Shown here in pieces: positions 2,435-48,237 of a DNA stretch of 64,000 bases (position 1 is its first letter; the number at the start of each line of letters is the position of its first letter). The translations under genes were made by a program, and so were the position numbers. The notes beneath the pieces are model-generated. The model saw only the letters and a list, made by a program, of their open reading frames with translations, was not told where the DNA came from and did no database searches. The DNA lies in the NCBI GenBank assembly GCA_964637955.1, contig CAZWXQ010000003.1, positions 95,154-159,153 of the forward strand. The letters run 5' to 3'. The DNA is from an uncultured Gammaproteobacteria bacterium (GTDB taxonomy: Bacteria > Patescibacteriota > Microgenomatia > Levybacterales > UBA12049).

Positions 2435-4183
2435 ATGGCTTTATTACCTTCTATTAAGAAGCGTCTTTCGCATATTGATCTATCCAGGTCAAATCTCCTT
2501 TCCAAAAATAAAATTGCTTTTTATCTCTTTTTCTTAATAATCACAGCAATATTTTTTATAAATGGTCTTCATGAGAGTTATCCTGATGAATTCGATAATA
2601 TTATGGGTGGCTGGTATTCTCTTCATGGACATTTAATATATAAAGATTGGTTTACTCATCATGGACCGATTGCATATTGGATAGCAGCGATTGTAGAAAT
2701 ATTTAGTGGACAATCTTTCTTCAGGTTCAGAATTATTTATTCAATTTTATTAGTTTTATATATTTTTGGAACCTATTTATATTTAAAAAAAAGCTTGGGA
2801 TTTGAGAGAACCAAATTTTACCTTGCGTTTATAGGAATAGTTTCTGTCGCAGCAACTTACTTTTGGGCGCATATGCTTTTAGCAGATAGTTTATCTGGAT
2901 TTTTACTAGTTCCTGTTTTTGGTTTAATAATCCTTAAAACATATTATAAAAAAAGTCTTTCAATAAAAGATTTAGTTTTTATTTCAGTGCTATGTTTCTT
3001 GTCAATTCTAAGCTCTTTGACTTTTACATATTTGATTGCAGGAATATATTTTACTTCGCTTTTTCTTTATTTCTTTTTTCCTGAAAAGAAAGAGATCTTT
3101 AAACTTAAAAGTTTTTTGCCTTTTATTATTTTAATTTTTCCTTTCTTATGTTTCTTGTTATATCTTGTTCTGACTGGATCATTTGCATATTACATTAAAG
3201 ATGCTGTTGTATTTAACCAGAAATTCTATATTTATAATTATCCACGTCCGGAAGGTCAAACATTCATTAATCCTATAAGATTTGCGATTTTAATTGCTCA
3301 AGAATTCCAAAACAATTTTTCAACGCTTTTGGTTCAAGCAAGAAATTTTGAATTTACATATCCGTTTAATATTACATTGGCGATCATCAACACTTCATTG
3401 GTTATCTATCTTATTCTCAAGAGGCGTTTTGCGCTAGCTCTCTTTGTTGTTTTTTGTTTAATTTACTCAAACGGAAGGAGTAATCCTTTGACTTCAAGAG
3501 AGACCGACTATCAATCTGCGGTTTATATTATGTTCTCATTTTTTAATATGACATTTCTTATCTATGCAATGTATGAAGAGTTAAAGAAAGATTTAGAATA
3601 TCCTAAAAAATTAATAATGTCAGCATTATTTATTTTAGTGCTCATTTATTCATTTTTTTGCACAACTTTTCTCGTGAGGAAGTTTTCTTATAAAGCGTAC
3701 GATAAGTATATGGGTAAATCTCCTACCATATATGATAGGCCTAAAATAGCTCCTATAATAAATAGCATGGTTAGTAAAGATGAATATGCATTAATCGGCC
3801 CCTTTGAATTTGAAGAGCTTTTCTATATGAATGCAAAGCTTCCGACCAAATATCAAATTCTTATTCCTGGAATGGGTAAGTCGCCCGAGATTCAGCAAGA
3901 AATGATTTCTGACTTGCAAAAAAATAAACCTAAAGTCATTTATTTTGATCGAAAATTTTTTATTTTGGGAAGTAATCCAGAAATGCATGGTAAATTTTTC
4001 TTGGACTATTTGGACAATAATTATGTGAAGTTAATGGATTATGATGATGGAGATAATACTTATCATTCTAAAATTCCAATCGATGGTAAACTTGATTTAG
4101 ATGCTAGGCTTTATTTAGATAAAGACCGTGCAGCCGAGATTATCAAGGAGTTACTAGAAAAAAATATTATAGAAGCAAATTAA
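2435..4183 (+). CDS. Polytopic membrane protein, possible GT-C glycosyltransferase; a Wzx/Wzy-type role is not excluded
   Basis: 582 aa, many TM helices, 'YPDEFDNIMGGWY' acidic motif near the N-terminus, C-terminal soluble domain. Confidence 0.35.
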   Translation: MALLPSIKKRLSHIDLSRSNLLSKNKIAFYLFFLIITAIFFINGLHESYPDEFDNIMGGWYSLHGHLIYKDWFTHHGPIAYWIAAIVEIFSGQSFFRFRIIYSILLVLYIFGTYLYLKKSLGFERTKFYLAFIGIVSVAATYFWAHMLLADSLSGFLLVPVFGLIILKTYYKKSLSIKDLVFISVLCFLSILSSLTFTYLIAGIYFTSLFLYFFFPEKKEIFKLKSFLPFIILIFPFLCFLLYLVLTGSFAYYIKDAVVFNQKFYIYNYPRPEGQTFINPIRFAILIAQEFQNNFSTLLVQARNFEFTYPFNITLAIINTSLVIYLILKRRFALALFVVFCLIYSNGRSNPLTSRETDYQSAVYIMFSFFNMTFLIYAMYEELKKDLEYPKKLIMSALFILVLIYSFFCTTFLVRKFSYKAYDKYMGKSPTIYDRPKIAPIINSMVSKDEYALIGPFEFEELFYMNAKLPTKYQILIPGMGKSPEIQQEMISDLQKNKPKVIYFDRKFFILGSNPEMHGKFFLDYLDNNYVKLMDYDDGDNTYHSKIPIDGKLDLDARLYLDKDRAAEIIKELLEKNIIEAN

Positions 4184-4988: not shown

Positions 4989-6158
4989 ATGATTCTGTTA
5001 ATTAAATCAACATTTTATAATGAAGCTGATGTTAAGAAGAAGCTTGCAAAATTTATATTGAAATCAAAAAAACTAAGCTTTGGAGAGGAATGTGTTAAGT
5101 TCGAAAAAAATTTCTCTAAGTATCAATCAAGAAAGAGATGCGTATTCGTTAACAGTGGTAGTTCTGCAAATTTAGCATTAATCCAGGCGTTAATTAATCT
5201 TGGAAGATTGAAAAAAGGAGATAAGGTTGGTTTTTCTTCTTTATCATGGAGCACGAATGCTATGCCTTTAATCCAGTTAGGGCTTAATCCAGTGCCGATT
5301 GATATTGAACTTAATTCTCTGAATGTATCAAGCCACACATTTAAAAAAGTTTTAGAAAAACAAAAATTAAAAGCTTTATTTTTAACAAATTTACTTGGTT
5401 TTTGTGATGATATAGATGAAATTAAAAATATTTGTAAAAAAAATAAAACTATTCTTATTGAGGACAATTGCGAATCTTTAGGGACCTTATATAAGGGTAT
5501 TAAGCTAGGTAATTTTGGATTAGCTTCGACATTCTCATTTTATGTTGGTCATCATATGTCAACCATAGAAGGTGGAGCAATATGCACAGATGATCATGAG
5601 CTGGCAGATATGCTTTCTCTTGTAAGAGCACATGGGTGGGATAGAAATTTAGAATTTGCAAAGCAAGATGAAATTAGAAAAAAATTTAAGGTAAATTCCA
5701 CATTTTATTCAAGATATACTTTTTATGACTTGGGTTATAATTTAAGACCAACTGATATAAGTGGATTTATAGGAAATTTAGAGATTAAACACATTGATGA
5801 GATAAACAAAAAAAGAAATGAAAATTTTCTAGAAATTTCTTCATGGTTATATAAAAATGATAAATATATTCCAATTAAATTTGACCACATAGATTTTATA
5901 TCTAATTTTGCTATACCGGTTTTATGTAAGTCAAAAGAAATAAGGGATGATCTAGTTAGGAGATGTGAAAATAGAGTTGAAATAAGACCGATTGTGGGAG
6001 GAGATTTATCTAGACAACCATTTTTTAAAAAATATGTTAAAAATTCTCTTAAAAATAAAAATTCCAAATTGGTACATGAGCAAGGATTGTATTTCGGAAA
6101 TAATCCTGAACTTACAAAAAAAGACAAAGCAGTTATAAAGAGCATTTTTGCTGATTAA
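4989..6158 (+). CDS. DegT/DnrJ/EryC1/StrS-family PLP/PMP enzyme, most likely a sugar-nucleotide 3-dehydratase (ColD / E1 type)
   Basis: Family motif 'SFYVGHHMSTIEGG' aligns with aminotransferase 'SFH..K.....EGG', but His occupies the Schiff-base Lys position. This is the hallmark of ColD/E1 3-dehydratases. Length of 389 aa is similar to ColD (~388 aa). Confidence 0.6.
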   Translation: MILLIKSTFYNEADVKKKLAKFILKSKKLSFGEECVKFEKNFSKYQSRKRCVFVNSGSSANLALIQALINLGRLKKGDKVGFSSLSWSTNAMPLIQLGLNPVPIDIELNSLNVSSHTFKKVLEKQKLKALFLTNLLGFCDDIDEIKNICKKNKTILIEDNCESLGTLYKGIKLGNFGLASTFSFYVGHHMSTIEGGAICTDDHELADMLSLVRAHGWDRNLEFAKQDEIRKKFKVNSTFYSRYTFYDLGYNLRPTDISGFIGNLEIKHIDEINKKRNENFLEISSWLYKNDKYIPIKFDHIDFISNFAIPVLCKSKEIRDDLVRRCENRVEIRPIVGGDLSRQPFFKKYVKNSLKNKNSKLVHEQGLYFGNNPELTKKDKAVIKSIFAD

Positions 6159-6204: not shown

Positions 6205-7182
6205 ATGAAGATACTTGTGACTGGGGGAGCAGGCTATATTGGAAGTTTCATGGTAGATTCCTTAGTAAAAAGAGGTGAAGAGGTTGTCGTAATTGACAAC
6301 TTAGAACGAGGCCATAGAGATGTAGTTAACGAACAGGCAAATTTTATTCAAGCAGATATACGAGATAGTGTAAAATTGGATGAGCTATTTTCGAATAGCA
6401 AGCTTGATGCAATAATACATTTTGCAGGTCTAATTTCCGTAGAAGAATCTACTAGGGAGCCCGAGCTTTATCATGAAATAAACGTAAATGGCTCAAATAA
6501 TTTGTTTACTTGTGCGATAAAGCATGGCATAAAAAATTTTATATTCAGTTCAACCGCGGCAGTTTATGGAAATCCAGAAGCTGTTCCTATTGTTGAAGAT
6601 CATCCTAAGAATCCCACGAGTCCATACGGAGAAACAAAACTTGAAACTGAGCGAAATCTAATTGAGCTTAGGGAAATGGATTCTGAAGTAAGCTTCGCTT
6701 GTCTAAGATATTTCAATGCTTGTGGGGCAGCTTTGGATGGGTCTATGGGGGAAGCGCATAGTCCAGAGACGCATATTATTCCACTTGCTATAAAAGCTAC
6801 GCTTAACAATCAAGCGTTTAAATTATTTGGTACGGATTATGATACCAAGGATGGAACTTGCGTTAGGGATTATATTCATGTTCTTGATTTGATTCAGGCT
6901 CATAATTTAGCGTTAGAAAAAATTTTAAATACCAAAGGTCAATATTTTTATAATGTTGGAACTGGTAATGGAATCACGAATAAAGAAGTTGCGCAAATGG
7001 TTATGAAAGTTAGCAGTTTAGATTTGAAGTTGGAAAATCATCCAAGAAGACCCGGTGATTCAGATAAATTAATAGCTGATTCAACTAAAATTAAAAATGA
7101 GTTAGGGTTTTTACCTGAATACTCAGATTTAGAAACAATAATTGGTTCGGCTTACAAATATCATGCAAAGCAAAGTGCTTAA
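6205..7182 (+). CDS. galE: UDP-glucose 4-epimerase
   Basis: 'MKILVTGGAGYIGS' Rossmann motif, 'YGETKLETE' YxxxK, ~325 aa, good co-linearity with GalE. Confidence 0.75.
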   Translation: MKILVTGGAGYIGSFMVDSLVKRGEEVVVIDNLERGHRDVVNEQANFIQADIRDSVKLDELFSNSKLDAIIHFAGLISVEESTREPELYHEINVNGSNNLFTCAIKHGIKNFIFSSTAAVYGNPEAVPIVEDHPKNPTSPYGETKLETERNLIELREMDSEVSFACLRYFNACGAALDGSMGEAHSPETHIIPLAIKATLNNQAFKLFGTDYDTKDGTCVRDYIHVLDLIQAHNLALEKILNTKGQYFYNVGTGNGITNKEVAQMVMKVSSLDLKLENHPRRPGDSDKLIADSTKIKNELGFLPEYSDLETIIGSAYKYHAKQSA

Positions 7183-7205: not shown

Positions 7206-8267
7206 ATGAAAATTGGAATTGACATCTCACCATTAACGAGCGGACACTATTTACATCATAGGGTGAGAGGTACAGGATTTTATCTTACAAATTTAAAAGA
7301 TTCATTAGAAAAATATTTCCCTGAGAATGAATATTTATATTTTAAAAGAGGAGATGTAATTCCAAAAGATGTTGACTTGATTCATATTCCATACTTCGAG
7401 CCGTTTTTTTTAACTTTACCAATTATTAATAAACATAAACTCGTTGTTACAGTTCATGATTTAACTCCAATTGTATTTCCTAAAGAATTTCCTGCAGGGA
7501 TCAAAGGCAGATTAAAATGGGAAATGCAAAAAAATATTTTAAAAAGAGTAGATTCGATAATTACTGATTCAATTTCATCCAAAAAAGATCTTGAAAAATT
7601 TATAGGAATTAAATCAAATAAAATTGATGTAGTCCAACTAGCAGCAGCAGAGCATTTTCAAAATACAAAATCTAAAAATTTAAAAATAATTAGAAAATAT
7701 AATCTTCCCGAAAACTTCCTTTTGTATGTAGGAGATGCAACTTGGAATAAAAATCTTCCAAATATGATAAAAGCAGTAAACAAAACTGATTATAGTTTGG
7801 TTATAGTGGGTGGGGCTTTTACTAATAAAAACTATGATAAGAATAATCCTTGGAATAAAGATTTGCATGAGGCTCAGGTACTGGCTTCATCAAATGAAAA
7901 GATTTTACCACTAGGATTTATTCCAGATGAGGATTTGATTGAAATTTATAATCTAGCGACTTCGTTTATTATGCCCTCTTTTTACGAAGGATTTGGTTTG
8001 CCAGTTCTTGAAGCAATGCAGTCGGGATGTCCGGTAATAACTACAAAAGAAGGATCTCTTGCTGAAGTTAGTGACAGTGCGGCATATTTTGTAACTCCAT
8101 CTAGCATAGATTCAATTGAGGATGGAATCAGGGAAGTTATGGAAAGTAAAGATTTGCGTTTGGCGCTTTCAAAAAAAGGACTCGAACAGTCTAAGAAGTT
8201 TTCCTGGAGAGAAACTGCTCATAAAACAAATGAAGTTTATAAAAAGATATTGAATGAAAATTTATAA
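7206..8267 (+). CDS. Glycosyltransferase family 4
   Basis: C-terminal 'SFYEGFGLPVLEAMQSGCPVITT' GT-B/GT4 motif. N-terminal 'MKIGIDISPL' is typical of the WbnK/mannosyltransferase subfamily. Confidence 0.8.
   Translation: MKIGIDISPLTSGHYLHHRVRGTGFYLTNLKDSLEKYFPENEYLYFKRGDVIPKDVDLIHIPYFEPFFLTLPIINKHKLVVTVHDLTPIVFPKEFPAGIKGRLKWEMQKNILKRVDSIITDSISSKKDLEKFIGIKSNKIDVVQLAAAEHFQNTKSKNLKIIRKYNLPENFLLYVGDATWNKNLPNMIKAVNKTDYSLVIVGGAFTNKNYDKNNPWNKDLHEAQVLASSNEKILPLGFIPDEDLIEIYNLATSFIMPSFYEGFGLPVLEAMQSGCPVITTKEGSLAEVSDSAAYFVTPSSIDSIEDGIREVMESKDLRLALSKKGLEQSKKFSWRETAHKTNEVYKKILNENL
7981..8011 (+). repeat. 31-nt stretch identical to 36457..36487 (GT4 'YEGFGLPVLE' region)
   Basis: Exact match 'tttacgaaggatttggtttgccagttcttga' in both paralogous GT4 genes. 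Confidence 0.6.
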
Positions 8268-8299
8268 CATAATTTATATTTAAGGAAATTTCTTCAGTA

Positions 8300-8329
8300 T
8301 TGCTTCCAATTAGTCTTGTGCTGTATTAT
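8300..8329 (+). promoter_or_regulatory. Possible internal promoter: TTGCTT (8300-8305), 18-nt spacer, TATTAT (8324-8329), 10 nt upstream of the 8340 ATG
   Basis: One of the few >50-nt intergenic gaps in the island; hexamers read directly. Confidence 0.25.
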
Positions 8330-8339
8330 TTAAGAGACA

Positions 8340-8897
8340 ATGGAATTAATAAATTTAGAAAATAAAGATTCCCAGAAATTAATAAAAGACTTGATAATAC
8401 GACCCTTAAGGGTTAATTTAGATGAGACTGGAGGAGTTTTAGTGGAAACTCTTAGACGCGATTGGGACGATGTTTATGGTGAAGGACGTGAATTTGCAAT
8501 GCAATATTTTTCCGTTACTTCATCTGGACTTGCGCGTGATGAGAAGGATTGGCATTTGCACCACAAGCAAGAGGATAGGTTTTTAGTTGTTGGAGGAGAG
8601 ATAGTAGTTTCAGTTGCAGATTATAGGAAGGAGTCTGAAACAAATGGAGTATTAAATTTATTTCATATGAAAGCTACGGAAAAACCGTATTTAATTTTAA
8701 TTCCAAAAGGAACACTCCATGGATTTATGGTGGTTGGAGATAGTGATGCAACTTTATTAAATTTTCCAACTCAAGTTTATAATCCAGAAGATGAGCTTAG
8801 AGTTTCACATGAAGAAGCAAGCATAAAAACTTCTAGTGGGCAGTTTTTCACCTGGAATATGGTTAGGGAAAAATTTCCAAATCTAAAAAAACCGTAG
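8340..8897 (+). CDS. RmlC-like cupin (dTDP-4-dehydrorhamnose 3,5-epimerase family sugar epimerase/isomerase)
   Basis: 185 aa. 'DETGGVLVETLR', 'WHLHHKQEDRFLVVGG' and 'ILIPKGTLHGF' match RmlC motifs 'DERGFFMETF', 'LRGLH.Q' and 'IPEGFAHGF'. Confidence 0.55.
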   Translation: MELINLENKDSQKLIKDLIIRPLRVNLDETGGVLVETLRRDWDDVYGEGREFAMQYFSVTSSGLARDEKDWHLHHKQEDRFLVVGGEIVVSVADYRKESETNGVLNLFHMKATEKPYLILIPKGTLHGFMVVGDSDATLLNFPTQVYNPEDELRVSHEEASIKTSSGQFFTWNMVREKFPNLKKP

Positions 8898-8898
8898 T

Positions 8899-9630
8899 AT
8901 GGCACAGCGCCTTTTGTCTCTTGTTTTGCCTGCCTTCAAACAAGAAAAAACAATCACTAAAGATATTAAGAACCTTTCAAAGGTTCTTTCTCTTTTGAAT
9001 TTAAATCACGAAATAATTGTGGTTGTTGATGGATTTGTAGATAAAACTTATCAAAATGTAAAAAGAAATAAAAATCCTCACGTAATTTTAATCGGCTATG
9101 AAAAAAATCAAGGGAAGGGTTATGCTATAAAACGTGGGGTTGAGAAGGCGAATGGAGATATAATTGGATTTATAGATGCCGGAATGGACCTCGATCCTAA
9201 AGAGATATCATTAATGTTAAATATTATGGACTGGAACAAAGCAGATATTGTTCTGGGAAGTAAGCTTCATCCCGATTCAATAATAAATTATCCGACAAGT
9301 AGAAAAATTTTATCGTGGGGTTACAGATTGATTATAAAGATTTTATTTAAATTAAATGTTAAAGATACGCAGGTTGGACTAAAATTATTTAAAAGGAATG
9401 TTGCAAAAAACGTGTTTCCCAAGATTGTAGTAAAAGCGTTCGCGTTTGATGTAGAAGTGTTAGCGGTTGCTCAGTCTTTGGGATACGTGAAGATTTATGA
9501 GGCTCCAATAAAATTAAAGTTTCGACAGGGTTCCATAACATCATCGAACTTTTGGAAAGTAAGCTTTTGGACATTATGGGACACACTGGCTGTATTTTAT
9601 CGAATAAATATACTTAAATATTATAAATAA
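8899..9630 (+). CDS. GT2 glycosyltransferase, DPM1/ArnC-like polyprenol-phosphate sugar synthase candidate lacking C-terminal TM helices
   Basis: GT-A core 'IIVVVDGFVDKT...DIIGFIDAGMD'. Immediately followed by a GT-C-like membrane protein with a TAATG overlap, the classic donor-synthase / GT-C pairing. Confidence 0.55.
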   Translation: MAQRLLSLVLPAFKQEKTITKDIKNLSKVLSLLNLNHEIIVVVDGFVDKTYQNVKRNKNPHVILIGYEKNQGKGYAIKRGVEKANGDIIGFIDAGMDLDPKEISLMLNIMDWNKADIVLGSKLHPDSIINYPTSRKILSWGYRLIIKILFKLNVKDTQVGLKLFKRNVAKNVFPKIVVKAFAFDVEVLAVAQSLGYVKIYEAPIKLKFRQGSITSSNFWKVSFWTLWDTLAVFYRINILKYYK

Positions 9631-10961
9631 TGCACAAGTTATTATTCAAAAATAGAATACAACTGCTATTAATTTCAATAATCTTATTGGGATTGGTATT
9701 AAGAGCGCATAATCTTACAACTTGGCCTAGGTTTGGTGCCACATTTGATGAATATGCATGGACTTGGCTTGGAATAAGTCTTATCAATAATCAAGTGCCT
9801 TCATCATGGTCGAATTATGAGGTGCATATGGGGCACAGAAAGTTTAAAGAATATCAAGATGTGAAATTTTGGATCATAGAGCCATATTTAGAGCATCCTC
9901 CATTATTTGGATTAGTCGCAGGCGGATTTGCAAAGTTAAATGGAGTGGAGGAGATGTTTGATCTAAATATTTATAAAATTCGTCCGTTGGCACTTATTCT
10001 TGGGGTTTTATCTATTGGTGCTTTGTTTATTCTGGTTAAAGAGCTTTATGATGACAAGACAGCGCTTTTGGCAAGTTTATTGTTTGCAACTGTTCCTACT
10101 ATTGTAATTGGATCTAGATTGGTGCAGAATGAGAATTTTTTTATACCACTGTATTTATTGTCTTTATTTTTAATAGCAAGATTTATTAAAAGCAAAAATA
10201 TTAAATATTTGTTGACTGTATCAATAATCTGCGGATTACTTACATTAGCCAAGGTTCCGTGGTTTGCTGCAGGATTGTCTATGGGATTAATACTTCTATT
10301 CAATAAAAAATACAAACATTTGCTTTTATTTTCCGGAATTGTTATATCCATTTTCTCTTTATTTTTAATTTATGGTGCTTATTTTAATTTAGAACTTTTT
10401 GTAAATGTATGGAAGTTCCAAATGGAAAGATATGAAATGACATTTAATAGCGTATTTAGTTTGTTTACTCAGCCATTTTTAGCAGATAGATTTTTTATTG
10501 ATGGATGGATCTATTTTGGCTGGATAGCCTTTATTTTGGTTTTATTGAAAGATATAAAAAAGAATTACATTTTGATTTTTGGATTTTTAGGCTATTTTCT
10601 TATATATGTATTTGCCATACCTGATACGCCAGGCCATGGATGGTATAGGTATCCATTTTATCCTTTCTTGATTATATCCTTAGCAATATTTATTAAAGAA
10701 TATTTTAATAAAAATATTATTCTTACTTTCATGTTTATTTTATTGGTTGGTTTATCTCTTTTAGAGAATTCATTTAAGAGGCAATTTGGATTTTCATTCT
10801 CATTTTTTAGGCTATTTTTAATTGCATCATGCTTTACGCTCCTTCCCTTATTTTTTAAAAGTAAAAGAGTAGCTAATTACTCAAAATTGTTTAGTTTTTT
10901 TATGCTAATATTTCTTTTTGGTCTAAACGTTTGGAGCGTTATGGAGTATAACGAGCAATAA
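9630..10961 (+). CDS. GT-C fold membrane glycosyltransferase (ArnT/PMT-like)
   Basis: 443 aa polytopic protein. 'RFGATFDEYAWTWLG' acidic motif in the first loop. Start codon overlaps the stop of the GT2 at 8899. Confidence 0.55.
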   Translation: MHKLLFKNRIQLLLISIILLGLVLRAHNLTTWPRFGATFDEYAWTWLGISLINNQVPSSWSNYEVHMGHRKFKEYQDVKFWIIEPYLEHPPLFGLVAGGFAKLNGVEEMFDLNIYKIRPLALILGVLSIGALFILVKELYDDKTALLASLLFATVPTIVIGSRLVQNENFFIPLYLLSLFLIARFIKSKNIKYLLTVSIICGLLTLAKVPWFAAGLSMGLILLFNKKYKHLLLFSGIVISIFSLFLIYGAYFNLELFVNVWKFQMERYEMTFNSVFSLFTQPFLADRFFIDGWIYFGWIAFILVLLKDIKKNYILIFGFLGYFLIYVFAIPDTPGHGWYRYPFYPFLIISLAIFIKEYFNKNIILTFMFILLVGLSLLENSFKRQFGFSFSFFRLFLIASCFTLLPLFFKSKRVANYSKLFSFFMLIFLFGLNVWSVMEYNEQ

Positions 10962-12071
10962 ATGCATATTTTAATTTTAAATTGGAGAGACGTTAAAAAT
11001 CCGGCATCAGGTGGTGCTGAAATACTGACCCAAGAAATAGCATCTAGCTTAGTTAAAAAAGGACATAGAGTTAGCTATATTTCATCATATTTTAATAAAT
11101 CTAAGAAGCGTGAGAGTATAGACGGTGTTGAGATAATTAGGGTTGGAGATCCAGACGCAAGGAGGATTTTCAAATCAGTACACTTTAATGCATACAAATT
11201 ATATAAAAATGAATTTAAAGGAAATGTAGATTTAGTAATCGATGAAGTGCATGGAATCCCATTTTTTACCCCTTTTTATGTTAAAGAAAAGAAAATTGCT
11301 TTGATATGTGAGATTGCAGGTGACTTGTGGAGTTTGGCAGTTAGATTTCCGTTTAATTTGCTTGGCCAGCTTATTGAGAGAATTTATCCATATTTCTATA
11401 AAAAAATAAAAGTTATTACTATTTCAGAGTCTTCTAGAAAAGATTTAATCAAATACGGTTTTCCAAGTTCACATGTAAAGATTATACCCATGGGATCAAA
11501 TTCAAAAGTTGTAAGCAGGATTCCTAAAAAAGAAAAAAATAAAACTTTGATTTTTATCTCAAGATTATCGCCAACTAAAGGAGTTAGTGATGCAATTAAA
11601 TCAGTTGAAATTTTAAAAAAGACATTTCCCGATATCAAGCTTTGGATAGTCGGCAGAGGTGAAGATAGTTTTAAGCAAGAATTAAGCGCGTTAGTTAAGG
11701 ATTTGGATTTAACTGAAAATATTAAATTTTATGGGTTTATCTCAGATTCTGAAAAAGAAGAATTGTTATCAAAAGCACATATATTAATAGCACCATCTGT
11801 AAAAGAAGGTTGGGGCCTTACTGTTCATGAGGCAGGAGCACGAGGTACGCCAGCTGTAGTTTATAATGTAGCAGGCTTAAGAGATGTTGTAAAAAATAAT
11901 GTAAATGGATTGGTTTGTACCAGTAATACTCCCCAGATATTAGCAAAAAATATATCTACTATGTTATCAAGTCAAAAATTATATCTGAAACTACAAGCTG
12001 GGGCAATTAATGAGAGAAAAAAACATACTTGGGATAATACAGCTGATAAGTTTTTAGAATATGCAAAATAA
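10962..12071 (+). CDS. Glycosyltransferase family 4
   Basis: 'SVKEGWGLTVHEAGARGTPAVV' GT4 C-terminal motif. Confidence 0.75.
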   Translation: MHILILNWRDVKNPASGGAEILTQEIASSLVKKGHRVSYISSYFNKSKKRESIDGVEIIRVGDPDARRIFKSVHFNAYKLYKNEFKGNVDLVIDEVHGIPFFTPFYVKEKKIALICEIAGDLWSLAVRFPFNLLGQLIERIYPYFYKKIKVITISESSRKDLIKYGFPSSHVKIIPMGSNSKVVSRIPKKEKNKTLIFISRLSPTKGVSDAIKSVEILKKTFPDIKLWIVGRGEDSFKQELSALVKDLDLTENIKFYGFISDSEKEELLSKAHILIAPSVKEGWGLTVHEAGARGTPAVVYNVAGLRDVVKNNVNGLVCTSNTPQILAKNISTMLSSQKLYLKLQAGAINERKKHTWDNTADKFLEYAK

Positions 12072-12900
12072 TAAACCATTAGTTTCTATCATTATTCCAA
12101 CAAGAAACTCTGCTCTCTATTTAGGAAACTGTTTACATTCAATAAAATCACAGACTTACAAGAATATTGAAACAATTATTGTGGATGGTTCCTCGACAGA
12201 CAATATTCTAGAGATTATAAAAAAGTATGAAGTTAGATATTTGAATTTTTCACCAAAAGTGAAAAAAGGAAAATTTGATGCACCACAGAAAAGAAATTTT
12301 GGAGTTAGTAAGTCCAAAGGAAAATTTGTTTATTATGTCGATGCAGATATGGAATTAAGTAAAAATTTGGTTAGTGAAGCTGTAAGGCTTTGCAGCAGTA
12401 CATATGATGGTCTAATTATAGCTGAGGATTCATTTGGGAAGGGGATTTGGGCTAGTGCAAAGAATTTAGAGCGGAAATGTTATTGGGGAGATGATAAGAT
12501 TGAGGCTCCAAGATTTTTTAAGAAAAAAGTTTGGGAAAAGCTTGGAGGACTTGATGAAAGTTTAGGTGGTGGAGGAGATGATTGGGACTTATACCAAAAA
12601 GCATTAAATGATGGATTTAAAATTGGAAGAACAAAAAATATTATTAGGCATAACGAAGGTGATTTGAAATTGATGAACCTTTTTAAAAAAAGATTCAAAT
12701 ATGGAAGAGATTCGGTTAAATATATTTCTAAAAGACCAAAAGAGGGAATCTCTAGTTATTTTCCGATAAGAAAGGCATATATCAAAAATTGGAGATTGTT
12801 TTTAGGACGACCAATTGATTCAATAGCATTTGTTGTAATGAGAACAATTGAATATGCTGCTGGTTTAAGTGGTATATTGTATTCATTAATTAAGAGATGA
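12061..12900 (+). CDS. Glycosyltransferase family 2
   Basis: 'LVSIIIPTRNSALYLGNCLHSIKSQTYKNIETIIVDGSSTD', 'YVDADM' DxD motif. Confidence 0.75.
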   Translation: MQNNKPLVSIIIPTRNSALYLGNCLHSIKSQTYKNIETIIVDGSSTDNILEIIKKYEVRYLNFSPKVKKGKFDAPQKRNFGVSKSKGKFVYYVDADMELSKNLVSEAVRLCSSTYDGLIIAEDSFGKGIWASAKNLERKCYWGDDKIEAPRFFKKKVWEKLGGLDESLGGGGDDWDLYQKALNDGFKIGRTKNIIRHNEGDLKLMNLFKKRFKYGRDSVKYISKRPKEGISSYFPIRKAYIKNWRLFLGRPIDSIAFVVMRTIEYAAGLSGILYSLIKR

Positions 12901-13883
12901 GTAATTATTGGCAAAATAAAAAGGTATTAGTTACAGGTGGAGCTGGATTTATAGGTTCTCATGCTGCTTTAGAGTTATTTAAAAAAAAATCTAAAGTTAC
13001 AATTGTTGTTTCTACTGATACTAAATTGAATAGATTAAGAAAAATTTATGGTTTAAATCTGGAAAAAATAATAGTCAAAAAAATAGATTTGACAAATTTT
13101 GATAGTTTTAAAAATGTTACAAAAGATCAAGAGATAGTTTTAAATTTTGCAGGATTGGATGGAGGATCTAAATTTAAGGTAGAGCATTCAGCGGAAATAT
13201 TTAGGATTAATAATTTGATTACATTAAATTTATTAGAATCTTGCAGAATAAATAAGGTAAATAAGGTTTTAATTATGAGCTCTATCGATATATATACTCA
13301 GAAATTAAAATCACCTATTAGAGAAGATCAATTTTTAATTAATTCTTCAGATGATCTTAATGGTTATTCAATGTCTAAGATTTTTTCTGAAATTGCCGCA
13401 AAATTATATTTTGAACAATACGGTCTACAGATAGCAATTGCGAGATCAGGCAATGTTTATGGGCCAGGTGATTATTCCGGGCTAGAAAAGGGCAGGGTGA
13501 TTCCAACTTTTATTTTAAATGCAAATGAAAATAAAGATATTAAAATCTGGGGTGATGCAGATCAAAAAAAATCATTTATCTATGTTACTGATTTAATAGA
13601 AAACTTACTTAATCTTACGAAGAATTATTCAAATTCTGATCCTGTAAATATTGCAGGAAAAAAATATGTTAGCTTATTGGAATTAGCAAATAAAATTATT
13701 CAAATTACTGAAAGTGATAGTAAGGCTAGTATGTTGAATGTTAACAAGATAAATAAAAAAGAAAGAAAAATTAGCTTAAATAAAGCAAATAAAGTAATTA
13801 AATTTTATGAAAAAACATCGCTTGAAGAGGGTCTGAAAAATATTATATATTCGGAGGATAAAAAAAATGAAAAATGTATTTGA
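12897..13883 (+). CDS. NAD(P)-dependent sugar epimerase/dehydratase/reductase (extended SDR)
   Basis: 'VLVTGGAGFIGSH' and 'YSMSK' YxxxK. Confidence 0.7.
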   Translation: MSNYWQNKKVLVTGGAGFIGSHAALELFKKKSKVTIVVSTDTKLNRLRKIYGLNLEKIIVKKIDLTNFDSFKNVTKDQEIVLNFAGLDGGSKFKVEHSAEIFRINNLITLNLLESCRINKVNKVLIMSSIDIYTQKLKSPIREDQFLINSSDDLNGYSMSKIFSEIAAKLYFEQYGLQIAIARSGNVYGPGDYSGLEKGRVIPTFILNANENKDIKIWGDADQKKSFIYVTDLIENLLNLTKNYSNSDPVNIAGKKYVSLLELANKIIQITESDSKASMLNVNKINKKERKISLNKANKVIKFYEKTSLEEGLKNIIYSEDKKNEKCI

Positions 13884-15246: not shown

Positions 15247-16044
15247 ATGGTAAAGAAAAAAATAGTTAATAAATCAATTCCAGTTGTAATATTCTGTGGA
15301 GGGCAAGGAACTCGAATGAAAGAAGAAACAGAATTTCGTCCAAAGCCAATGGTTTCTGTTGGTGGTATGCCAATTTTACTCCACATAATGAAAATATATT
15401 CCTATTATGGATTTAATAATTTTATTATTGCATTGGGATATAAAGGAGATTATATTAAAAATTATTTTATAGAAGAGGAATATCTGGCTCACGATTTTAC
15501 TATAAATACAAAGACTGGAAAAAAAGTTTTATATAGAAAAACAGGAGAGAGAAATGATGATTTTAATATAACTTTTGTAGATACAGGTCTTGAGACGTTA
15601 ACAGCTGAAAGACTTATTAAAGTTAAGTCATATATTAAATCTGATACTTTTATGGCAACTTATGGAGATGGTGTAGGTAGTGTTTCTATTGATAAATTAT
15701 TGGATTTTCATAAAAGCAAAAATATTATAGGAACGCTAACTGGTGTACATCCAAAATCTAAATGGGGTTTGGTTATTTCTGATAAAGAGAATATAGTCAA
15801 GAAGTTTGAGCAAAAACCTCAACTTAATCAGTATGTTAATGGAGGCTTTATGGTATTTAATAAAAAGATATTCGATTTTATTAAGCCAAATGAAATGATA
15901 GAGGTAGGACTGAATAGACTAATTGATAAAAGTCAGCTTGGTGTGTTTATTCATGATGGTTATTGGTCCGCGATGGACACATATCAAGATGTAGAGGAGA
16001 TGAATAATCAGTGGAATAATGATCCAAAATGGAAAGTCTGGTAG
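15247..16044 (+). CDS. rfbF: Glucose-1-phosphate cytidylyltransferase (CDP-glucose pyrophosphorylase)
   Basis: 'VVIFCGGQGTRMKEETEFRPKPMVSVGGMPILLHIMKIYSYYGFNNFIIALGYKGDYIKNYF' is co-linear with Salmonella RfbF ('AVILAGGLGTRLSEET..KPKPMVEIGGKPILWHIMK.YS..G..DFIIC.GYKG'). 265 aa. Confidence 0.8.
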   Translation: MVKKKIVNKSIPVVIFCGGQGTRMKEETEFRPKPMVSVGGMPILLHIMKIYSYYGFNNFIIALGYKGDYIKNYFIEEEYLAHDFTINTKTGKKVLYRKTGERNDDFNITFVDTGLETLTAERLIKVKSYIKSDTFMATYGDGVGSVSIDKLLDFHKSKNIIGTLTGVHPKSKWGLVISDKENIVKKFEQKPQLNQYVNGGFMVFNKKIFDFIKPNEMIEVGLNRLIDKSQLGVFIHDGYWSAMDTYQDVEEMNNQWNNDPKWKVW

Positions 16045-16141
16045 ACTTTTGTAAGAATCATTCAAACATTTGCTGATTAAATTTTGGAATAATCTACGCA
16101 AATTAATGCTTGAAAGTGATTTAGGATTTTAAAAAATAATT

Positions 16142-17170
16142 ATGAGAAATGTATTAGTTACAGGAGATCTAGGATATATAGGTTCAGTTTTGGTTCCTAA
16201 GATTATTGATAAAGGATTTGAAGTTATCGGTTTTGATACTGGTTATTTTGAAGAAATGATTGATGATAATCATAAGAAGCCAGTTTATAAAACAATTAAG
16301 AAAGATATTAGAAAAATAACAAAAAAAGATTTAGAAGGCATTGACTCAATTATTCATCTAAGTGCTTTGTCAAATGATCCAATGGGAGAAATTAATCCAA
16401 TGCTGACTGAAGAAATTAATTATAAAGCTTCGGTAAGGCTTGCAAGATTAGCAAAAGAGGCAGGAGTTAAAAGGTTTATTTTTTCTTCATCATGCAGCGT
16501 GTATGGATTTTCAGAGAATGGAATTGTTTCTGAAGAATCAAAAGCTAATCCTTTAACTGCGTATGCAGAGTCAAAAATTAAAACTGAGAAAAAAATTTCA
16601 AAACTTGCTGACGATAAATTTTTTGTAGGTATTCTTAGAAACTCTACAGTATATGGTTATTCCCCACGTTTTAGAAGTGATCTAGTGGTAAATAATTTAG
16701 TTTTATCAGCGTTACTTCACGATGAAATCAGAATAATGAGTGATGGTAGTCCATGGAGACCGCTTATTGATGTTAGAGATTTAAGTGATATTTTTATTCT
16801 ATTTTTAGAAACTAAAAAGAAGAGTTTAAATGGTAAAGTTGTAAATATTGGATTTGAGGAAAATAATTTTCAAGTTAAAAACTTGGCAAATATAATTAAA
16901 AAACAAATCCCAACCTGCAAGATTGTTTATACAGGTGAGCATGGTAAGGATAGCAGGAGTTATAAGGTAGACTTTACATTATTTAAAAATCTATTTCCTG
17001 ATCAAAAACAAAACTGGAACATGAATAAATCTGTAAAAAATTTAATTAAAGAACTCAAGAGTCTGGGTGTTGAAGACTCAAATTATAATTTGAATAATTT
17101 AATCAGAATAGAAGTTCTTAAGGACCTAATTAAGGATAAAAAAATAAATAATGAATTATATTGGATTTAG
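16142..17170 (+). CDS. NAD-dependent sugar-nucleotide epimerase/dehydratase (extended SDR)
   Basis: 'VLVTGDLGYIGS', 'SSCSVYG', 'YAESK'. Follows rfbF, so it could act as the 4,6-dehydratase step; that is unproven. Confidence 0.65.
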   Translation: MRNVLVTGDLGYIGSVLVPKIIDKGFEVIGFDTGYFEEMIDDNHKKPVYKTIKKDIRKITKKDLEGIDSIIHLSALSNDPMGEINPMLTEEINYKASVRLARLAKEAGVKRFIFSSSCSVYGFSENGIVSEESKANPLTAYAESKIKTEKKISKLADDKFFVGILRNSTVYGYSPRFRSDLVVNNLVLSALLHDEIRIMSDGSPWRPLIDVRDLSDIFILFLETKKKSLNGKVVNIGFEENNFQVKNLANIIKKQIPTCKIVYTGEHGKDSRSYKVDFTLFKNLFPDQKQNWNMNKSVKNLIKELKSLGVEDSNYNLNNLIRIEVLKDLIKDKKINNELYWI

Positions 17171-17239
17171 AACCAATTTCAATAAAATTTATATTTATTC
17201 TAGTTACAATTTATGCTAATATAACTTAATAATTGAATT

Positions 17240-17689
17240 ATGATTGATGGAGTAATAATTAAACAACTTAAAAAAATTCCCGATGAAAGAGGTACGATAA
17301 TGCATGTCCTTAGATCTGATGATAGTGAATTTACTAAATTCGGGGAAGTTTATATTTCAAAAGCATATCCAGGAGTAATTAAAGGATGGCACTTGCATAC
17401 CAAGATGACGCTTAATTACTGCGTGATAGAAGGAATGGCTAAATTAGTTTTATGTGATGATAGAAAAAAGTCTAAAACTTATAAAGAAATTCAGGAAATA
17501 TTTATGGGTGAAGACAATTACTGCTTAGTTCAGATTCCTCCTGGAGTTATGAATGGATATAAGACTATTGGCACTAAGCCTTCACTATTAATAAATTGTC
17601 CTGATTCTGCTCATGATCCTAAGGAGATGTTAAGATTCGATCCTCTTAGTAAAAAAGTACCTTATTCTTGGGATCTTGTTATGAGATAA
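17240..17689 (+). CDS. Small RmlC/FdtA-like cupin (sugar-nucleotide epimerase or 3,4-ketoisomerase)
   Basis: 149 aa. 'KIPDERGTIMHV' and 'GWHLH' match the cupin sugar-isomerase family. Confidence 0.5.
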   Translation: MIDGVIIKQLKKIPDERGTIMHVLRSDDSEFTKFGEVYISKAYPGVIKGWHLHTKMTLNYCVIEGMAKLVLCDDRKKSKTYKEIQEIFMGEDNYCLVQIPPGVMNGYKTIGTKPSLLINCPDSAHDPKEMLRFDPLSKKVPYSWDLVMR

Positions 17690-17723
17690 GCTGTCCAACG
17701 GGTCTCCGCAATGAATTTATTAC

Positions 17724-18593
17724 ATGAAAATATTTCTTATTGGTAAAAATGGACAACTCGGACATGAAATCGAGAAGCTCTCATTAAAAAATAATTATAA
17801 AATTTCCTCATTTGGTAAAGATGAATTAGATATCTTAAATTATAAGGATGTTAAAAAAAAGATATTAAGATTAAAGCCCGATGTTGTAATTAATACAGCT
17901 GCAATGCATGTTGTGCCCGACTGTGAGACAGATCCTATTAAAGCATTTCAAATAAATTCTTTTGCTCAAAAAAATATCGCTGAGATTTGTAATGAAAATA
18001 ATATTAAATCCGTTTATATCTCTACTGATAAGGTATTTGATGGTACAAAAAAAACTCCATACTCAGAAACTGATAGGCCAAATCCAATTCAAAATTATGG
18101 ATTATCAAAGCTTGCTGGGGAATTTTTAACTCTAAATAATAACAAAAATAGTTTAGTTATAAGAACATCGATTATATTTGGAGGGCTAGCTGGTAGCAGG
18201 CAGAAAAAAGGAAATTTCGTTTTGTACATTTTAAACAAAGCGAAAGAAGAAAAGCGATTGGAAATTTCCTCTGAGCAAATTACGAGCTTTGTATATGCTG
18301 ATGATTTAGCAAAATCTATTCTTGGGTTGGTTAAGAAGAAAAAAAATGGTATTTATAATGTTTCGAATCAGAAACATTCTTCATCAGCAATATTTGCAAA
18401 AGAAATTATAAAAATAAGAAGCTTAGATCTTAAAATAATCCCAGTTGATAGAGGAGGCTTTTATGGGCAAATGAGAACTCCAATCTTTACGGCTCTAAGT
18501 ACATCGAAATTAAAATCCGCAGGGATTACGCTTCCTGATTGGCAGACAAGTCTTAAGTGCTATTTAAAATATTTGGAGTCAAATGGGATATGA
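17724..18593 (+). CDS. RmlD-like NAD(P)H sugar-nucleotide 4-reductase (dTDP-4-dehydrorhamnose reductase family)
   Basis: 'MKIFLIGKNGQLG', 'YGLSKLAGE', ~289 aa. The same fold includes CDP-abequose/paratose synthases. Confidence 0.6.
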   Translation: MKIFLIGKNGQLGHEIEKLSLKNNYKISSFGKDELDILNYKDVKKKILRLKPDVVINTAAMHVVPDCETDPIKAFQINSFAQKNIAEICNENNIKSVYISTDKVFDGTKKTPYSETDRPNPIQNYGLSKLAGEFLTLNNNKNSLVIRTSIIFGGLAGSRQKKGNFVLYILNKAKEEKRLEISSEQITSFVYADDLAKSILGLVKKKKNGIYNVSNQKHSSSAIFAKEIIKIRSLDLKIIPVDRGGFYGQMRTPIFTALSTSKLKSAGITLPDWQTSLKCYLKYLESNGI

Positions 18594-19612
18594 GTAAACC
18601 ACTCGTATCTATAGTGATTTTAAATTGGAATGGTAAAAAAAGGCTTGAAGCGTGCTTAAAATCTCTAAAAAAAATTAAGTACCCCTCGATAGAGATTGTG
18701 CTTGTTAATAATGGTTCAACAGACAAAAGTAAAGAATTTGTTGAAAAAAATTACCCACAAATTAAGCTTATTAACTTAATAGATAATATTGGTTATGCGG
18801 GTGGAAAAAATCTTGGAGTAAAGCACGCATCCGGAAAATATATTCTTGCGTTAGATAATGATACGGTTGTTACTCCTGATTTTGTAGATGTTTTAGTTAA
18901 AGATTTAGAAAAGGATAAATCAATCGGAATAGTTCAGCCACAGATAAGAAGTATGTCAAATGAAAAATTATTAGACTCAGTAGTTTCATTTTTTACATTC
19001 ACTGGATTTTTATATCACTTTGGATATATGAAATCACACGAGAATAAAATTTATCAAACAAAAATGTTTGGGTATTCCATAAAAGGAGCCTGTTTTATGA
19101 TTTCAAAAGCTGATTATTTGAAGCTCGGGGGGCTGGACGAGTTATTTCTTTCTTATGTAGAGGAGACAGATCTCTGTCATAGGATGTGGATGTATGGGAA
19201 AAAAGTTTTATACGATCCGGAAAGTGTAATTTACCATTTTGGTGGAGGAGATACTTTGACCATGACAACAAGTAATGACTCTCTTTTTAGAGCATTTCGA
19301 AATAGATATTACTCATACATAAAAAATTTTAGCACTCTATATTTAATTAAAATTTTACCAGTCCATTTTATTATGTGTGAAATGTTTGTTGTTTTCTCTC
19401 TTCTCAAAAGAAATTTTAAACAGGCATATTATGTTCAAAAAGGGACGCTTTGTTGGGTATTGAAGTTACCAGCTCTATTAAAGAAGCGAAAATTAATTCA
19501 GAAAAAAATTAGAAAAAAGACTGATTCACAAATTGTTCCAGTTTTTACTAAAAATCCTAGATTTTCATATTATTTTTACCTAGGGAGTGGATTAGTAAAC
19601 TTTAAAGATTAA
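18590..19612 (+). CDS. Glycosyltransferase family 2 (rhamnosyltransferase-like). Start assigned to the ATG in the ATGA overlap with the upstream stop.
   Basis: 'PLVSIVILNWNGKKRLEACLKSL...IEIVLVNNGSTD', 'LDNDTVV' DxD motif. The ORF-track start at 18557 lies inside the previous gene. Confidence 0.7.
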   Translation: MSKPLVSIVILNWNGKKRLEACLKSLKKIKYPSIEIVLVNNGSTDKSKEFVEKNYPQIKLINLIDNIGYAGGKNLGVKHASGKYILALDNDTVVTPDFVDVLVKDLEKDKSIGIVQPQIRSMSNEKLLDSVVSFFTFTGFLYHFGYMKSHENKIYQTKMFGYSIKGACFMISKADYLKLGGLDELFLSYVEETDLCHRMWMYGKKVLYDPESVIYHFGGGDTLTMTTSNDSLFRAFRNRYYSYIKNFSTLYLIKILPVHFIMCEMFVVFSLLKRNFKQAYYVQKGTLCWVLKLPALLKKRKLIQKKIRKKTDSQIVPVFTKNPRFSYYFYLGSGLVNFKD

Positions 19613-47151: not shown

Positions 47152-48237
47152 ATGAAAGTTGTTATTTTTGCAGGGGGAGTAGGAACAAGACTTTGGCCAT
47201 TGAGCCGAAAAAATTCCCCAAAGCAATTTGAAAAAATTGTTGGTGATAATTCGATGATTCAAATTGCGGTAAATAAATTAATGCCCGATTTCTCGTGGAA
47301 CGATATTTACATCTCTACGGGTAAAGACTATGCAAGTTTGTTAAAAGATCAGCTTCCAAATCTTCCTGAAGAAAATATTATAGTTGAGCCTGCAACTCGT
47401 GATGTAGGTCCAGCGGTGGGTTTAGTTACAGCAAAATTTGTTAAAGAGTTTCCAGATGAGCCTTTTGCGATTCTTTGGGGAAGTGACCATTTGGTAAAAG
47501 AGGAAGATTTATTTAGAAGAACACTTCTTGCTGCAGAGCAAGTGGTTAAAGACGATTCGAATAAGATCGTATTTGTAGGTCAAAAGCCAAGATTTGCAAG
47601 TCAGAATTTGGGATATATAGAATTTGGCGATAAAATATCTGAAGTAAATGGAACTTCTGTTTTTGAATTTAGCGGATTTAAGTATAGACCCGACCTTGAA
47701 ACAGCGGAAGAGTTTTTAAATGATGGAAAGCACTCATGGAACTTGGGTTACTTCGTAACTACTCCTAAATTTCTTTGGAAATGTTTTGAGCAGTCAGAGC
47801 CAGGTCTTTTTGCTCAGCTTTCAGAAATTAATAAAGCTGTTGGAACTGATAAATTTGACCAAGTTTTAAATGAAATTTATCCTACCATTGATAAGATTTC
47901 ATTTGATAATGCAATTTTAGAGAAACTTGATAAGAAATTTGGAAATGTTATTTCAGTAGATATGGGATGGAGCGATATTGGGGCATGGGAAGCATTAAAA
48001 GAGGCTCTCTCTGAATCCGCGGATGAAAATGTTACGAAAGGACACGTCATGATTGAAGATTCACGTGACAGCTTGATGTTTAATTATACTAAGCAACTTG
48101 TTGTAGGAATTGATTTGGAAGAAATGCTCGTAATTAGTACTGATGATGTTGTCTTGGTGTGCCCCAAAACTTCGGTTCCAAAAATAAAAAAACTTGTTGA
48201 GAGTTTAGCAGGAACTCCCCTTGAGCATCTTACTTAA
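47152..48237 (+). CDS. manC: Mannose-1-phosphate guanylyltransferase (nucleotidyltransferase domain only, no PMI domain)
   Basis: 'MKVVIFAGGVGTRLWPLSRKNSPKQF' and 'VDMGWSDIGAWEAL' match ManC/GMP motifs ('GGSGSRLWPLSR', 'MDAGWSDVGSW'). Confidence 0.75.
   Translation: MKVVIFAGGVGTRLWPLSRKNSPKQFEKIVGDNSMIQIAVNKLMPDFSWNDIYISTGKDYASLLKDQLPNLPEENIIVEPATRDVGPAVGLVTAKFVKEFPDEPFAILWGSDHLVKEEDLFRRTLLAAEQVVKDDSNKIVFVGQKPRFASQNLGYIEFGDKISEVNGTSVFEFSGFKYRPDLETAEEFLNDGKHSWNLGYFVTTPKFLWKCFEQSEPGLFAQLSEINKAVGTDKFDQVLNEIYPTIDKISFDNAILEKLDKKFGNVISVDMGWSDIGAWEALKEALSESADENVTKGHVMIEDSRDSLMFNYTKQLVVGIDLEEMLVISTDDVVLVCPKTSVPKIKKLVESLAGTPLEHLT

Follow-up and report, generated by a model that had tools for sequence, protein, structure and literature searches.

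3,6-Dideoxyhexoses are known mainly from the O-antigens of Gram-negative bacteria. The sugar 3-dehydratases are defined by a histidine in place of the catalytic lysine (PMC8987622). Two of them, E1 and SpnQ, need a [2Fe-2S] cluster together with a reductase, while ColD has no cluster and recycles its pyridoxamine 5'-phosphate (PMP) with glutamate (PMC8987622). The characterised Fe-S-free 3-dehydratases that we found, namely ColD of Escherichia coli and Yersinia and the C3-dehydratases of Campylobacter jejuni HS:5/HS:11, all use GDP sugars (PMC8987622, PMC10440746). In C. jejuni, GDP-6-deoxy-4-keto-D-lyxo-heptose is converted to GDP-3,6-dideoxy-4-keto-heptose, and the ColD-type enzyme of this 3,6-dideoxyheptose pathway is followed by a separate cupin epimerase and a reductase of SDR (short-chain dehydrogenase/reductase) type, with no bifunctional ColC (PMC10440746). 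Here we describe the open reading frame (ORF) 4989-6158 of a 64-kb stretch of contig CAZWXQ010000003.1 (the window, to which all coordinates refer) from a bacterium of the candidate phyla radiation (CPR). Judged by its fold, its His188 and the missing Fe-S motif, ColD-type, E3-independent 3-dehydratase (E3 being the reductase of the E1 system) is the right call for the predicted product, as an earlier note on this DNA had proposed. We consider it likely that this enzyme, with GDP-4-keto-6-deoxy-D-mannose as the most likely substrate, serves the synthesis of a GDP-3,6-dideoxyhexose for a surface glycan; a colitose-like 3,6-dideoxy sugar is then a probable constituent of that glycan in the host.

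The encoded protein and its active site

The ORF begins with ATG and encodes a protein of 389 aa, residues 18-386 of which match Pfam PF01041 (DegT_DnrJ_EryC1; E 3.6e-60). The gene and its active-site motif are as follows.

4989..6158, + strand, predicted PMP-dependent nucleotide-sugar 3-dehydratase of the Fe-S-free ColD type with His188, 389 aa (ORF, Pfam and structure match)
5535..5576, + strand, active-site motif SFYVGHHMSTIEGG, residues 183-196, with His188 at the place of the Schiff-base Lys

His188 is encoded by CAT (nt 5550-5552) and is the first His of the query's 'GHH'. In phmmer alignments its column holds H in wild-type ColD (2gms), K in ColD H188K (2r0t) and N in ColD H188N (3b8x), and the same residue aligns with His220 of E1, the first His of the E1 'AHH' motif. 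Residues 170-205 contain a single Lys, K172, which is matched by a Lys in the ColD alignment and therefore does not restore the aminotransferase motif; no compensating Lys occurs in residues 173-205. The earlier note had read this His as standing at the catalytic Lys position and had named a His off that position, or a nearby restoring Lys, as evidence to the contrary; the alignment puts the His squarely in the ColD H188 column and shows no such Lys. Conservation is equally strict: H188, G187, H189, D159, E162, S183, R219 and R333 do not vary among 36 close homologues, and His188 is present in all 111 full-length nearest representatives of 50%-identity clusters. Among 114 aligned sequences, H188 is again invariant, with D159, E162, S183, R219 and R333 nearly so. 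The last five are all present in the query; the cofactor- and phosphate-binding residues of ColD are D159, E162, S183, R219 and R331. Gly187 of the query occupies the place of ColD Ser187, and across the 114 sequences residue 187 is Gly in 56, Ser in 42, Ala in 16 and Asn in none. The title of PDB 3gr9 names a ColD S187N/H188K mutant; S187N is needed to turn ColD into an aminotransferase.

Among solved structures, the best match of the query is ColD (2gms; E 7.8e-59, 202.7 bits), followed by E1 (3bcx; E 2.7e-40, 141.7 bits), an order in keeping with the earlier assignment to the ColD rather than the E1 type. A putative NDP-4-keto-6-deoxyglucose 3-dehydratase, 9wvy, scores 113.7 bits (E 8.5e-32), and aminotransferases appear from about 1e-25 and about 92 bits downward. 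An AlphaFold2 model (pLDDT 83.5, pTM 0.84) searched with Foldseek gave ColD chains on top (TM-score 0.80), then E1, then sugar aminotransferases, the last being entries of Lys mutants at the equivalent position (ArnB K188A, PglE K184A and perosamine synthase K186A).

The Cys cluster of E1 that binds [2Fe-2S] is absent from the query, as had been expected of a ColD-like enzyme. The E1 region 'rdCyCapgCdntC' aligns to the query's 'ahgwdrnlefakqdeirkkf' with zero Cys, and the same positions are gaps or non-Cys in 111 of 111 nearest representatives; the query's Cys residues (35, 51, 139, 149, 161, 199, 313 and 326) all lie outside the columns of the E1 cluster. Moreover, Pfam scans of the window ORFs found no E3, ferredoxin or flavodoxin-reductase-type gene, which bears out the earlier remark that an E3 partner is not evident. 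With His188 present, and neither the Cys cluster nor E3, the query has the anatomy of the ColD type. It passes all structural and motif tests of the Fe-S-free 3-dehydratase class and is predicted to work like ColD.

Two other classes of enzyme have to be weighed against this assignment. Homologues carry NCBI names such as 'DegT/DnrJ/EryC1/StrS aminotransferase' and 'aminotransferase class V-fold PLP-dependent enzyme', and the fold is common to aminotransferases, as would suit an ordinary sugar aminotransferase of the DegT/DnrJ/EryC1/StrS family. We regard this as very unlikely, given the invariant His in place of the Schiff-base Lys of the S-F-x-x-x-K motif with no compensating Lys, a residue 187 that is Gly, Ser or Ala as opposed to the Asn of the engineered ColD S187N/H188K, and scores of dehydratases more than 100 bits above those of aminotransferases; it was rejected on His188, the lack of a nearby Lys and the higher dehydratase scores. 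An E1/SpnQ-type 3-dehydratase dependent on [2Fe-2S] and an external reductase is less probable still, to the point of being hardly credible. The alignment of His188 with E1 His220 and the rank of E1 as second-best solved relative speak for it; the four-Cys region without Cys in the query and in the 111 representatives, and the lack of E3, ferredoxin or flavodoxin-reductase genes in the window scans, speak against it. This candidate was rejected for want of the Cys motif and E3 and since the cutoff of the RfbH model was missed.

Compared with ColD, the query has the same DegT fold, a similar length (about 390 aa), the His at the same number 188, no Fe-S motif, and conserved EDNCE (Asp159 and Glu162), Ser183, Arg219 and Arg331/333. 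It differs in the Gly187 for Ser187, in 36% identity over 369 columns (BLASTP), in its separate clade of a neighbour-joining tree, and in a CPR host as opposed to a Gram-negative bacterium with O-antigen. By these sequence measures of clade and identity it is not a ColD orthologue. The C. jejuni HS:5/HS:11 C3-dehydratases use Fe-S-free ColD-type chemistry with L-glutamate (PMC10440746), which the query is predicted to share; unlike the query, they are 62-67% identical to ColD and fall in the ColD clade, and a heptose is not indicated for the query. E1 (RfbH/DdhC/AscC; PDB 3bcx, 3bb8) likewise carries His where the Lys would stand and shares the first half-reaction, and the query's island has an RfbF-like gene. 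Unlike the query, E1 has 437 aa and a four-Cys [2Fe-2S] motif and needs E3; unlike E1 loci, the window has only the RfbF-like gene, with no rfbG-type SDR (TIGR02622, S-D-K) and no E3 (rfbI). SpnQ-type enzymes and 9wvy are likewise His-type 3-dehydratases of the DegT fold. The SpnQ type (dTDP-4-keto-2,6-dideoxyglucose) differs in being Fe-S dependent, in using dTDP substrates and in belonging to actinomycete antibiotic pathways (PMC8987622), and neither a 2,3-dehydratase nor RmlA/RmlB is present in the window.

Linked genes and the probable sugar substrate

Gene neighbours were clustered for 80 metagenome loci with 66-75%-identical homologues, of which 77 were non-redundant and 58 had enough flank. 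More distant clade members (L005, L092-L094 and L098-L100) were inspected separately; a contig scan with 3-dehydratase peptides, which are poorly conserved, added one true relative, L005. Among the sugar-modifying neighbours, SDRs of the GDP-fucose-synthase/GME branch are the most frequent. A 'SSACVYP' SDR of Fcl/GME type, with the equivalents of Cys109 and His179 kept, occurs in 19 of the 77 loci, and a truer Fcl-like SDR in 10 of 77; at least 13 of the 58 sufficiently flanked loci have one or the other directly downstream of the 3-dehydratase. ColC, the enzyme that follows ColD, is itself an Fcl homologue. In the more distant members, the gene is accompanied by GDP-mannose 4,6-dehydratase (GMD), by Fcl-like genes, or by both:

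L005, Peribacteria, 53% identity, GMD (TIGR01472, 525 bits) directly downstream
L092, 48% identity, GMD (65% identity to E. coli Gmd) together with an Fcl-like gene (52%) that overlaps the 3-dehydratase start
L093/L094, giant-virus contigs, 46% identity, 3-dehydratase followed by GMD (50%) and an Fcl-like SDR
L098, Patescibacteria, 64% identity, Fcl-like gene (47%) two genes downstream
L099, phage contig, 47% identity, Fcl-like gene directly downstream

In L092, genes of the GT10 and GT11 fucosyltransferase families lie on either side. The linkage of the query's relatives to gmd and fcl/colC-like genes, shared with ColD, together with GT10/GT11, favours GDP-4-keto-6-deoxy-mannose over a CDP sugar, and the presence of ManC in the query's own island also counts for the GDP route. 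The island genes that enter into the argument are listed below.

6205..7182, + strand, GalE, UDP-glucose 4-epimerase (TIGR01179 383.5 bits vs cutoff 262.3; motif STAAVYG)
8340..8897, + strand, RmlC-like cupin (PF00908; cluster 'cupinA' in 10 loci)
12897..13883, + strand, extended SDR of the Fcl/GME/UXS branch (best solved relatives UXS, GME, Fcl)
15247..16044, + strand, RfbF-like (glucose-1-phosphate cytidylyltransferase-like) gene (TIGR02623 238.5 bits, below cutoff 300.25; PDB 1tzf E 1.1e-51)
16142..17170, + strand, SDR nearest to 6vo6 (best solved relative, E 5.9e-31; motif SSSCSVYG; lacks the dehydratase acid/base pair)
17240..17689, + strand, second RmlC-like cupin (PF00908, E 1e-12)
17724..18593, + strand, RmlD-type 4-ketoreductase (TIGR01214 228.1 bits vs cutoff 224.05)
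47152..48237, + strand, ManC, mannose-1-phosphate guanylyltransferase without PMI domain, GDP-mannose source (TIGR01479, 226 bits, model 3-346 of 467; 30% identity to E. coli CpsB)

The mechanism of ColD is established (PMC8987622, PMC10440746), and the steps for the query are proposed by analogy. Pyridoxal 5'-phosphate (PLP) would be converted to PMP by transamination with L-glutamate, and PMP would form a ketimine with C4 of the NDP-4-keto-6-deoxyhexose. His188 would then take the C4' proton, and loss of the 3-hydroxyl would produce a 3,4-ene intermediate. As the [2Fe-2S] cluster and the E3 reductase are both lacking, this intermediate would be released hydrolytically, yielding NDP-4-keto-3,6-dideoxyhexose, ammonia and PLP. 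On the supply side, GDP-mannose from ManC (47152) would be acted on by a 4,6-dehydratase not visible in the window, and the product would be epimerised and/or reduced by the cupins 8340 and 17240 and the SDRs 12897 and 17724, a gene set like that of the C. jejuni pathway. This would lead to a GDP-3,6-dideoxyhexose, with colitose or one of its isomers as the sugar, that enters the surface glycan by way of one of the many glycosyltransferases. By analogy, cupin 8340 may epimerise the 4-keto intermediate at C5 or at C3/C5, while GalE, the immediate downstream neighbour, is probably unconnected with the 3-dehydratase step.

Several observations weigh against the proposed GDP-dideoxyhexose pathway. 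With ColD the query shares only 36% identity, and its clade is distinct from the ColD clade; in the literature found, which covers ColD, E1, SpnQ and the C. jejuni heptose C3-dehydratases, this clade has no characterised member. In the 64-kb window, no 4,6-dehydratase of the GMD, RmlB or CDP-glucose type was found by NCBIfam, motif inspection, blastp or tblastn, nor is there one in the 10 kb upstream of the 92%-identical syntenic orthologue (L095), which hold PMT_2-type membrane proteins only. The Fcl Cys/His epimerase pair is kept by no window SDR, and a canonical ColC is missing too. Furthermore, the top NCBIfam match of the query is the RfbH model NF011936 (207.4 bits vs cutoff 423), which is of CDP type; the island contains the RfbF-like cytidylyltransferase; and some relatives' islands contain an SDR resembling CDP-glucose 4,6-dehydratase.

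The motifs T-D-E, T-S-E and S-D-K occur in none of the six window SDRs, none of which approaches the gmd, RmlB or CDP-dehydratase cutoffs or reaches TIGR02622; a canonical 4,6-dehydratase among these six was ruled out by motifs and cutoffs alike. In tblastn of the window with E. coli Gmd, RmlB, a CPR GMD and the CDP-dehydratase-like SDR, the best match was no better than GalE. In both the window and L095, the 3-dehydratase sits at the island front beside GalE, and the place that follows GT2a (12061) is taken by SDR 12897. With the 'SSACVYP' Fcl-like SDRs that adjoin the 3-dehydratase in relatives, SDR 12897 shares 35% identity. It lacks the Fcl Cys109/His179, reading SSIDIYT and GRVIPT as does its L095 orthologue, and keeps Ser and Asp at the GMD T133/E135 positions. 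SDR 12897 is thus a candidate for a partner enzyme of the 3-dehydratase and could act as a simple 4-ketoreductase or else as a non-canonical 4,6-dehydratase. With no recognisable 4,6-dehydratase or canonical ColC in the window, and, unlike the ColD loci, no gmd or colC beside the query gene though manC is present, the pathway is incomplete as seen here and we infer the final sugar. The earlier claim of a 3,6-dideoxyhexose in the glycan is thus plausible and has the enzyme class behind it, while the obligatory 4,6-dehydratase and a canonical ColC are missing from the window.

The same ColD-type, E3-independent C3-deoxygenation might act on CDP-4-keto-6-deoxy-D-glucose and lead to a CDP-3,6-dideoxyhexose of the paratose, abequose, tyvelose or ascarylose type, which we consider unlikely. 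It would account for the RfbF-like gene at 15247, for the RfbH model at the top of the NCBIfam matches, and for the cupin and RmlD-like reductase that adjoin the RfbF-like gene in the window and resemble the AscE/AscF steps of ascarylose synthesis. Of the 77 related loci, 6 also contain RfbF-like genes and 5 contain SDRs with the 'SDK' motif. The family that these SDRs match best is CDP-glucose 4,6-dehydratase; with 194-223 bits, however, they stay below the equivalog cutoff of 278. The RfbF-like/SDK pair lies roughly 5-8 kb from the 3-dehydratase, beside a C-methyltransferase, whereas the genes that adjoin the 3-dehydratase clade-wide are Fcl-like and GMD, and the SDK-type SDR is absent from the window. 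In addition, the known CDP-type enzyme, E1, needs an Fe-S cluster and E3 (PMC8987622). The RfbF-like and CDP-dehydratase-like genes of the relatives look like a second deoxysugar branch, and the RfbF-like gene 15247 probably feeds a separate CDP-sugar branch. The RfbF-like, RmlD-like and cupin genes to which the earlier note had appealed are not demonstrably of the same pathway, and the context in relatives points to GDP, not CDP.

About as improbable is a non-canonical 4-keto sugar, which could be a GDP-4-keto-hexose or -heptose made by SDR 16142 and leading to a 3-deoxy sugar, or a substrate from a non-canonical 4,6-dehydratase of 12897 type or of a type with a 'TSH' motif. In its favour are the absence of a canonical 4,6-dehydratase from the window and the position of the candidate genes directly upstream of the 3-dehydratase: a 32.5%-identical homologue of SDR 16142 in L098, 12897-type SDRs (with Ser and Asp/Glu at GMD T133/E135) in L025, L043 and L044, and 'TSH' SDRs in at least six loci. 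ColD-type enzymes also accept heptose substrates in C. jejuni (PMC10440746). The argument is, however, pure extrapolation from position and two residues; moreover, L025 has two GMD-type genes besides its 12897-type SDR, a GMD may lie elsewhere in the 300-kb contig, and all characterised 3-dehydratases act on 6-deoxy substrates (PMC8987622). Put more generally, we hold it rather doubtful that an unusual SDR (12897-type, 'TSH' or 16142-type) supplies the 4-keto substrate instead of a canonical GMD, or that a CDP sugar is deoxygenated without Fe-S and E3. Were it so, a non-canonical supply would imply 4,6-dehydratases of a new class or the synthesis of 3-deoxy rather than 3,6-dideoxy sugars, and with either variant the cell surfaces of many Microgenomates would owe part of their decoration to a deoxysugar pathway that is conserved and uncharacterised.

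Family, selection and host

The 3-dehydratase is an unremarkable representative of its family, which is very large and has already been annotated automatically. Scoring in the homology search was confined to 8000 candidates that share words with the query; 7940 of these reached E<=1e-20, and all 120 of the matches listed were at least 67% identical to the query. The named ones among these listed matches, few in number, came mostly from Levybacteria, Microgenomates or Patescibacteria, and the automatic JGI name for family members is 'CDP-6-deoxy-D-xylo-4-hexulose-3-dehydrase'. In comparison, HMMER over 1.84 billion 50%-identity representatives gave 677 proteins at E<=1e-30. The earlier note had called the presence of such sugars in a CPR-like glycan notable; with at least 7940 homologues at E<=1e-20 and an automatic name in use, this was overstated. 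We found nothing in the literature on CPR bacteria together with dideoxyhexose.

In the neighbour-joining tree of the 114 sequences, the query belongs to a sizeable clade whose members are 40-72% identical to it. This clade, in which His188 is invariant, is separate from that of ColD, so the enzyme is ColD-like without being a ColD orthologue. The gene is under strong purifying selection, with dN 0.044, dS 1.67 and dN/dS 0.026 against the 92%-identical syntenic orthologue L095. As to the host, the named best matches of RsmH (58849-59739) are in Levybacteria, Microgenomates and Patescibacteria, and the GC content of about 30% and the ordering of genes on one strand agree with these affinities, so that the CPR-like label given earlier is reasonable.

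If the proposed GDP-sugar pathway holds, Microgenomates-type CPR bacteria produce a colitose-like 3,6-dideoxyhexose for their surface glycans, as would certain phages and giant viruses in which clade members occur. This would provide a concrete component for the little-known cell-surface chemistry of uncultivated episymbionts and would correct the widespread 'aminotransferase' annotation of the family. A specialist would be unsurprised: the reaction belongs to textbook enzymology, and the family is both abundant and already labelled a 3-dehydrase by one pipeline.

Other genes of the glycan island and of related loci

The glycan island spans about 48 kb, lies entirely on the + strand and contains many GT2, GT4 and PMT_2 genes. 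Its GC content is 27-35%, compared with 36-39% beyond about 48 kb, in the housekeeping part, where RecO, a class II tRNA synthetase, IMPDH, MraZ/RsmH, a penicillin-binding protein and a Mur ligase are encoded. All but three of the 58 window ORFs of at least 110 aa are on the + strand, the exceptions being short and antisense within longer genes; ORFs 5123-5467 and 5735-6145, which run antisense to the 3-dehydratase gene within it, were taken as spurious products of AT-rich sequence. The remaining annotated genes of the island include the following.

24967 and 32788, + strand, further SDRs of the island (Pfam/NCBIfam scans)
27208-29007, + strand, carbamoyltransferase (Carbam_trans_N and Carbam_trans_C; Pfam)
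48241, + strand, Bac_transf priming transferase (Pfam)

An FkbM methyltransferase at 14444 and hexapeptide acetyltransferases at 13867, 23305 and 36730 add to these, and together with the carbamoyltransferase they suggest a heavily decorated glycan. Five large island ORFs have no Pfam match at E<=1e-5: 19615-22995 (1126 aa), 38139-41342 (1067 aa), 2435-4183 (582 aa), 29007-30680 (557 aa) and 30670-32751 (693 aa). The four consecutive genes of 15247-18593 encode the RfbF-like protein, the 6vo6-like SDR, a cupin epimerase and the RmlD-type reductase. 6vo6 is C. jejuni Cj1427, a GDP-heptose C4-dehydrogenase, and the block resembles the oxidise-epimerise-reduce route of C. jejuni (Cj1427/1430/1428), which makes an epimerised sugar without deoxygenation.

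CPR relatives keep an island layout of GT4-Wzx-cupin-GT2-GT4-GT2-[SDR]-3-dehydratase-[Fcl-like SDR]...GT4-C-methyltransferase-x-GT2-RfbF-like-[S-D-K SDR], to which cupin 8340 belongs. The layout was seen in L014, L019, L024, L053, L072, L078, L083 and L086, and the window (7206-13883 and 15247-19612) is a rearranged version of it with the 3-dehydratase moved to the front. Several relatives have the 'TSH' SDR, of 313 aa, as the immediate upstream neighbour of the 3-dehydratase (L014 9051-9974, L019 9047-9985, L024 9009-9944, L056 9088-10005, L061 85-1014 and L074 696-1628). It reads A-S-T-S-H-V-Y-G in place of T-D-E/T-S-E/S-D-K, and its best family match is CDP-glucose 4,6-dehydratase, with only 155 bits.

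Sugar C-methyltransferases (Methyltransf_13/14), which are TylCIII-like, lie a few kb from the 3-dehydratase in L062 (14538-15776), L098 (352-1590) and L004 (16892-18142), which hints at a branched-chain deoxysugar in those relatives; the window contains none. Viral contigs, too, carry members of the query clade, 44-47% identical to the query, namely L093 (8001-11046), L094 (3546-6591), L099 (8001-10198) and L100 (6970-9164). An NCLDV (nucleocytoplasmic large DNA virus) major capsid gene, DVNP and PCNA are found on L093/L094; L099 and L100 are phage-like, and L099 has HK97-type capsid, portal and protease genes. These viruses may make a colitose-like sugar.

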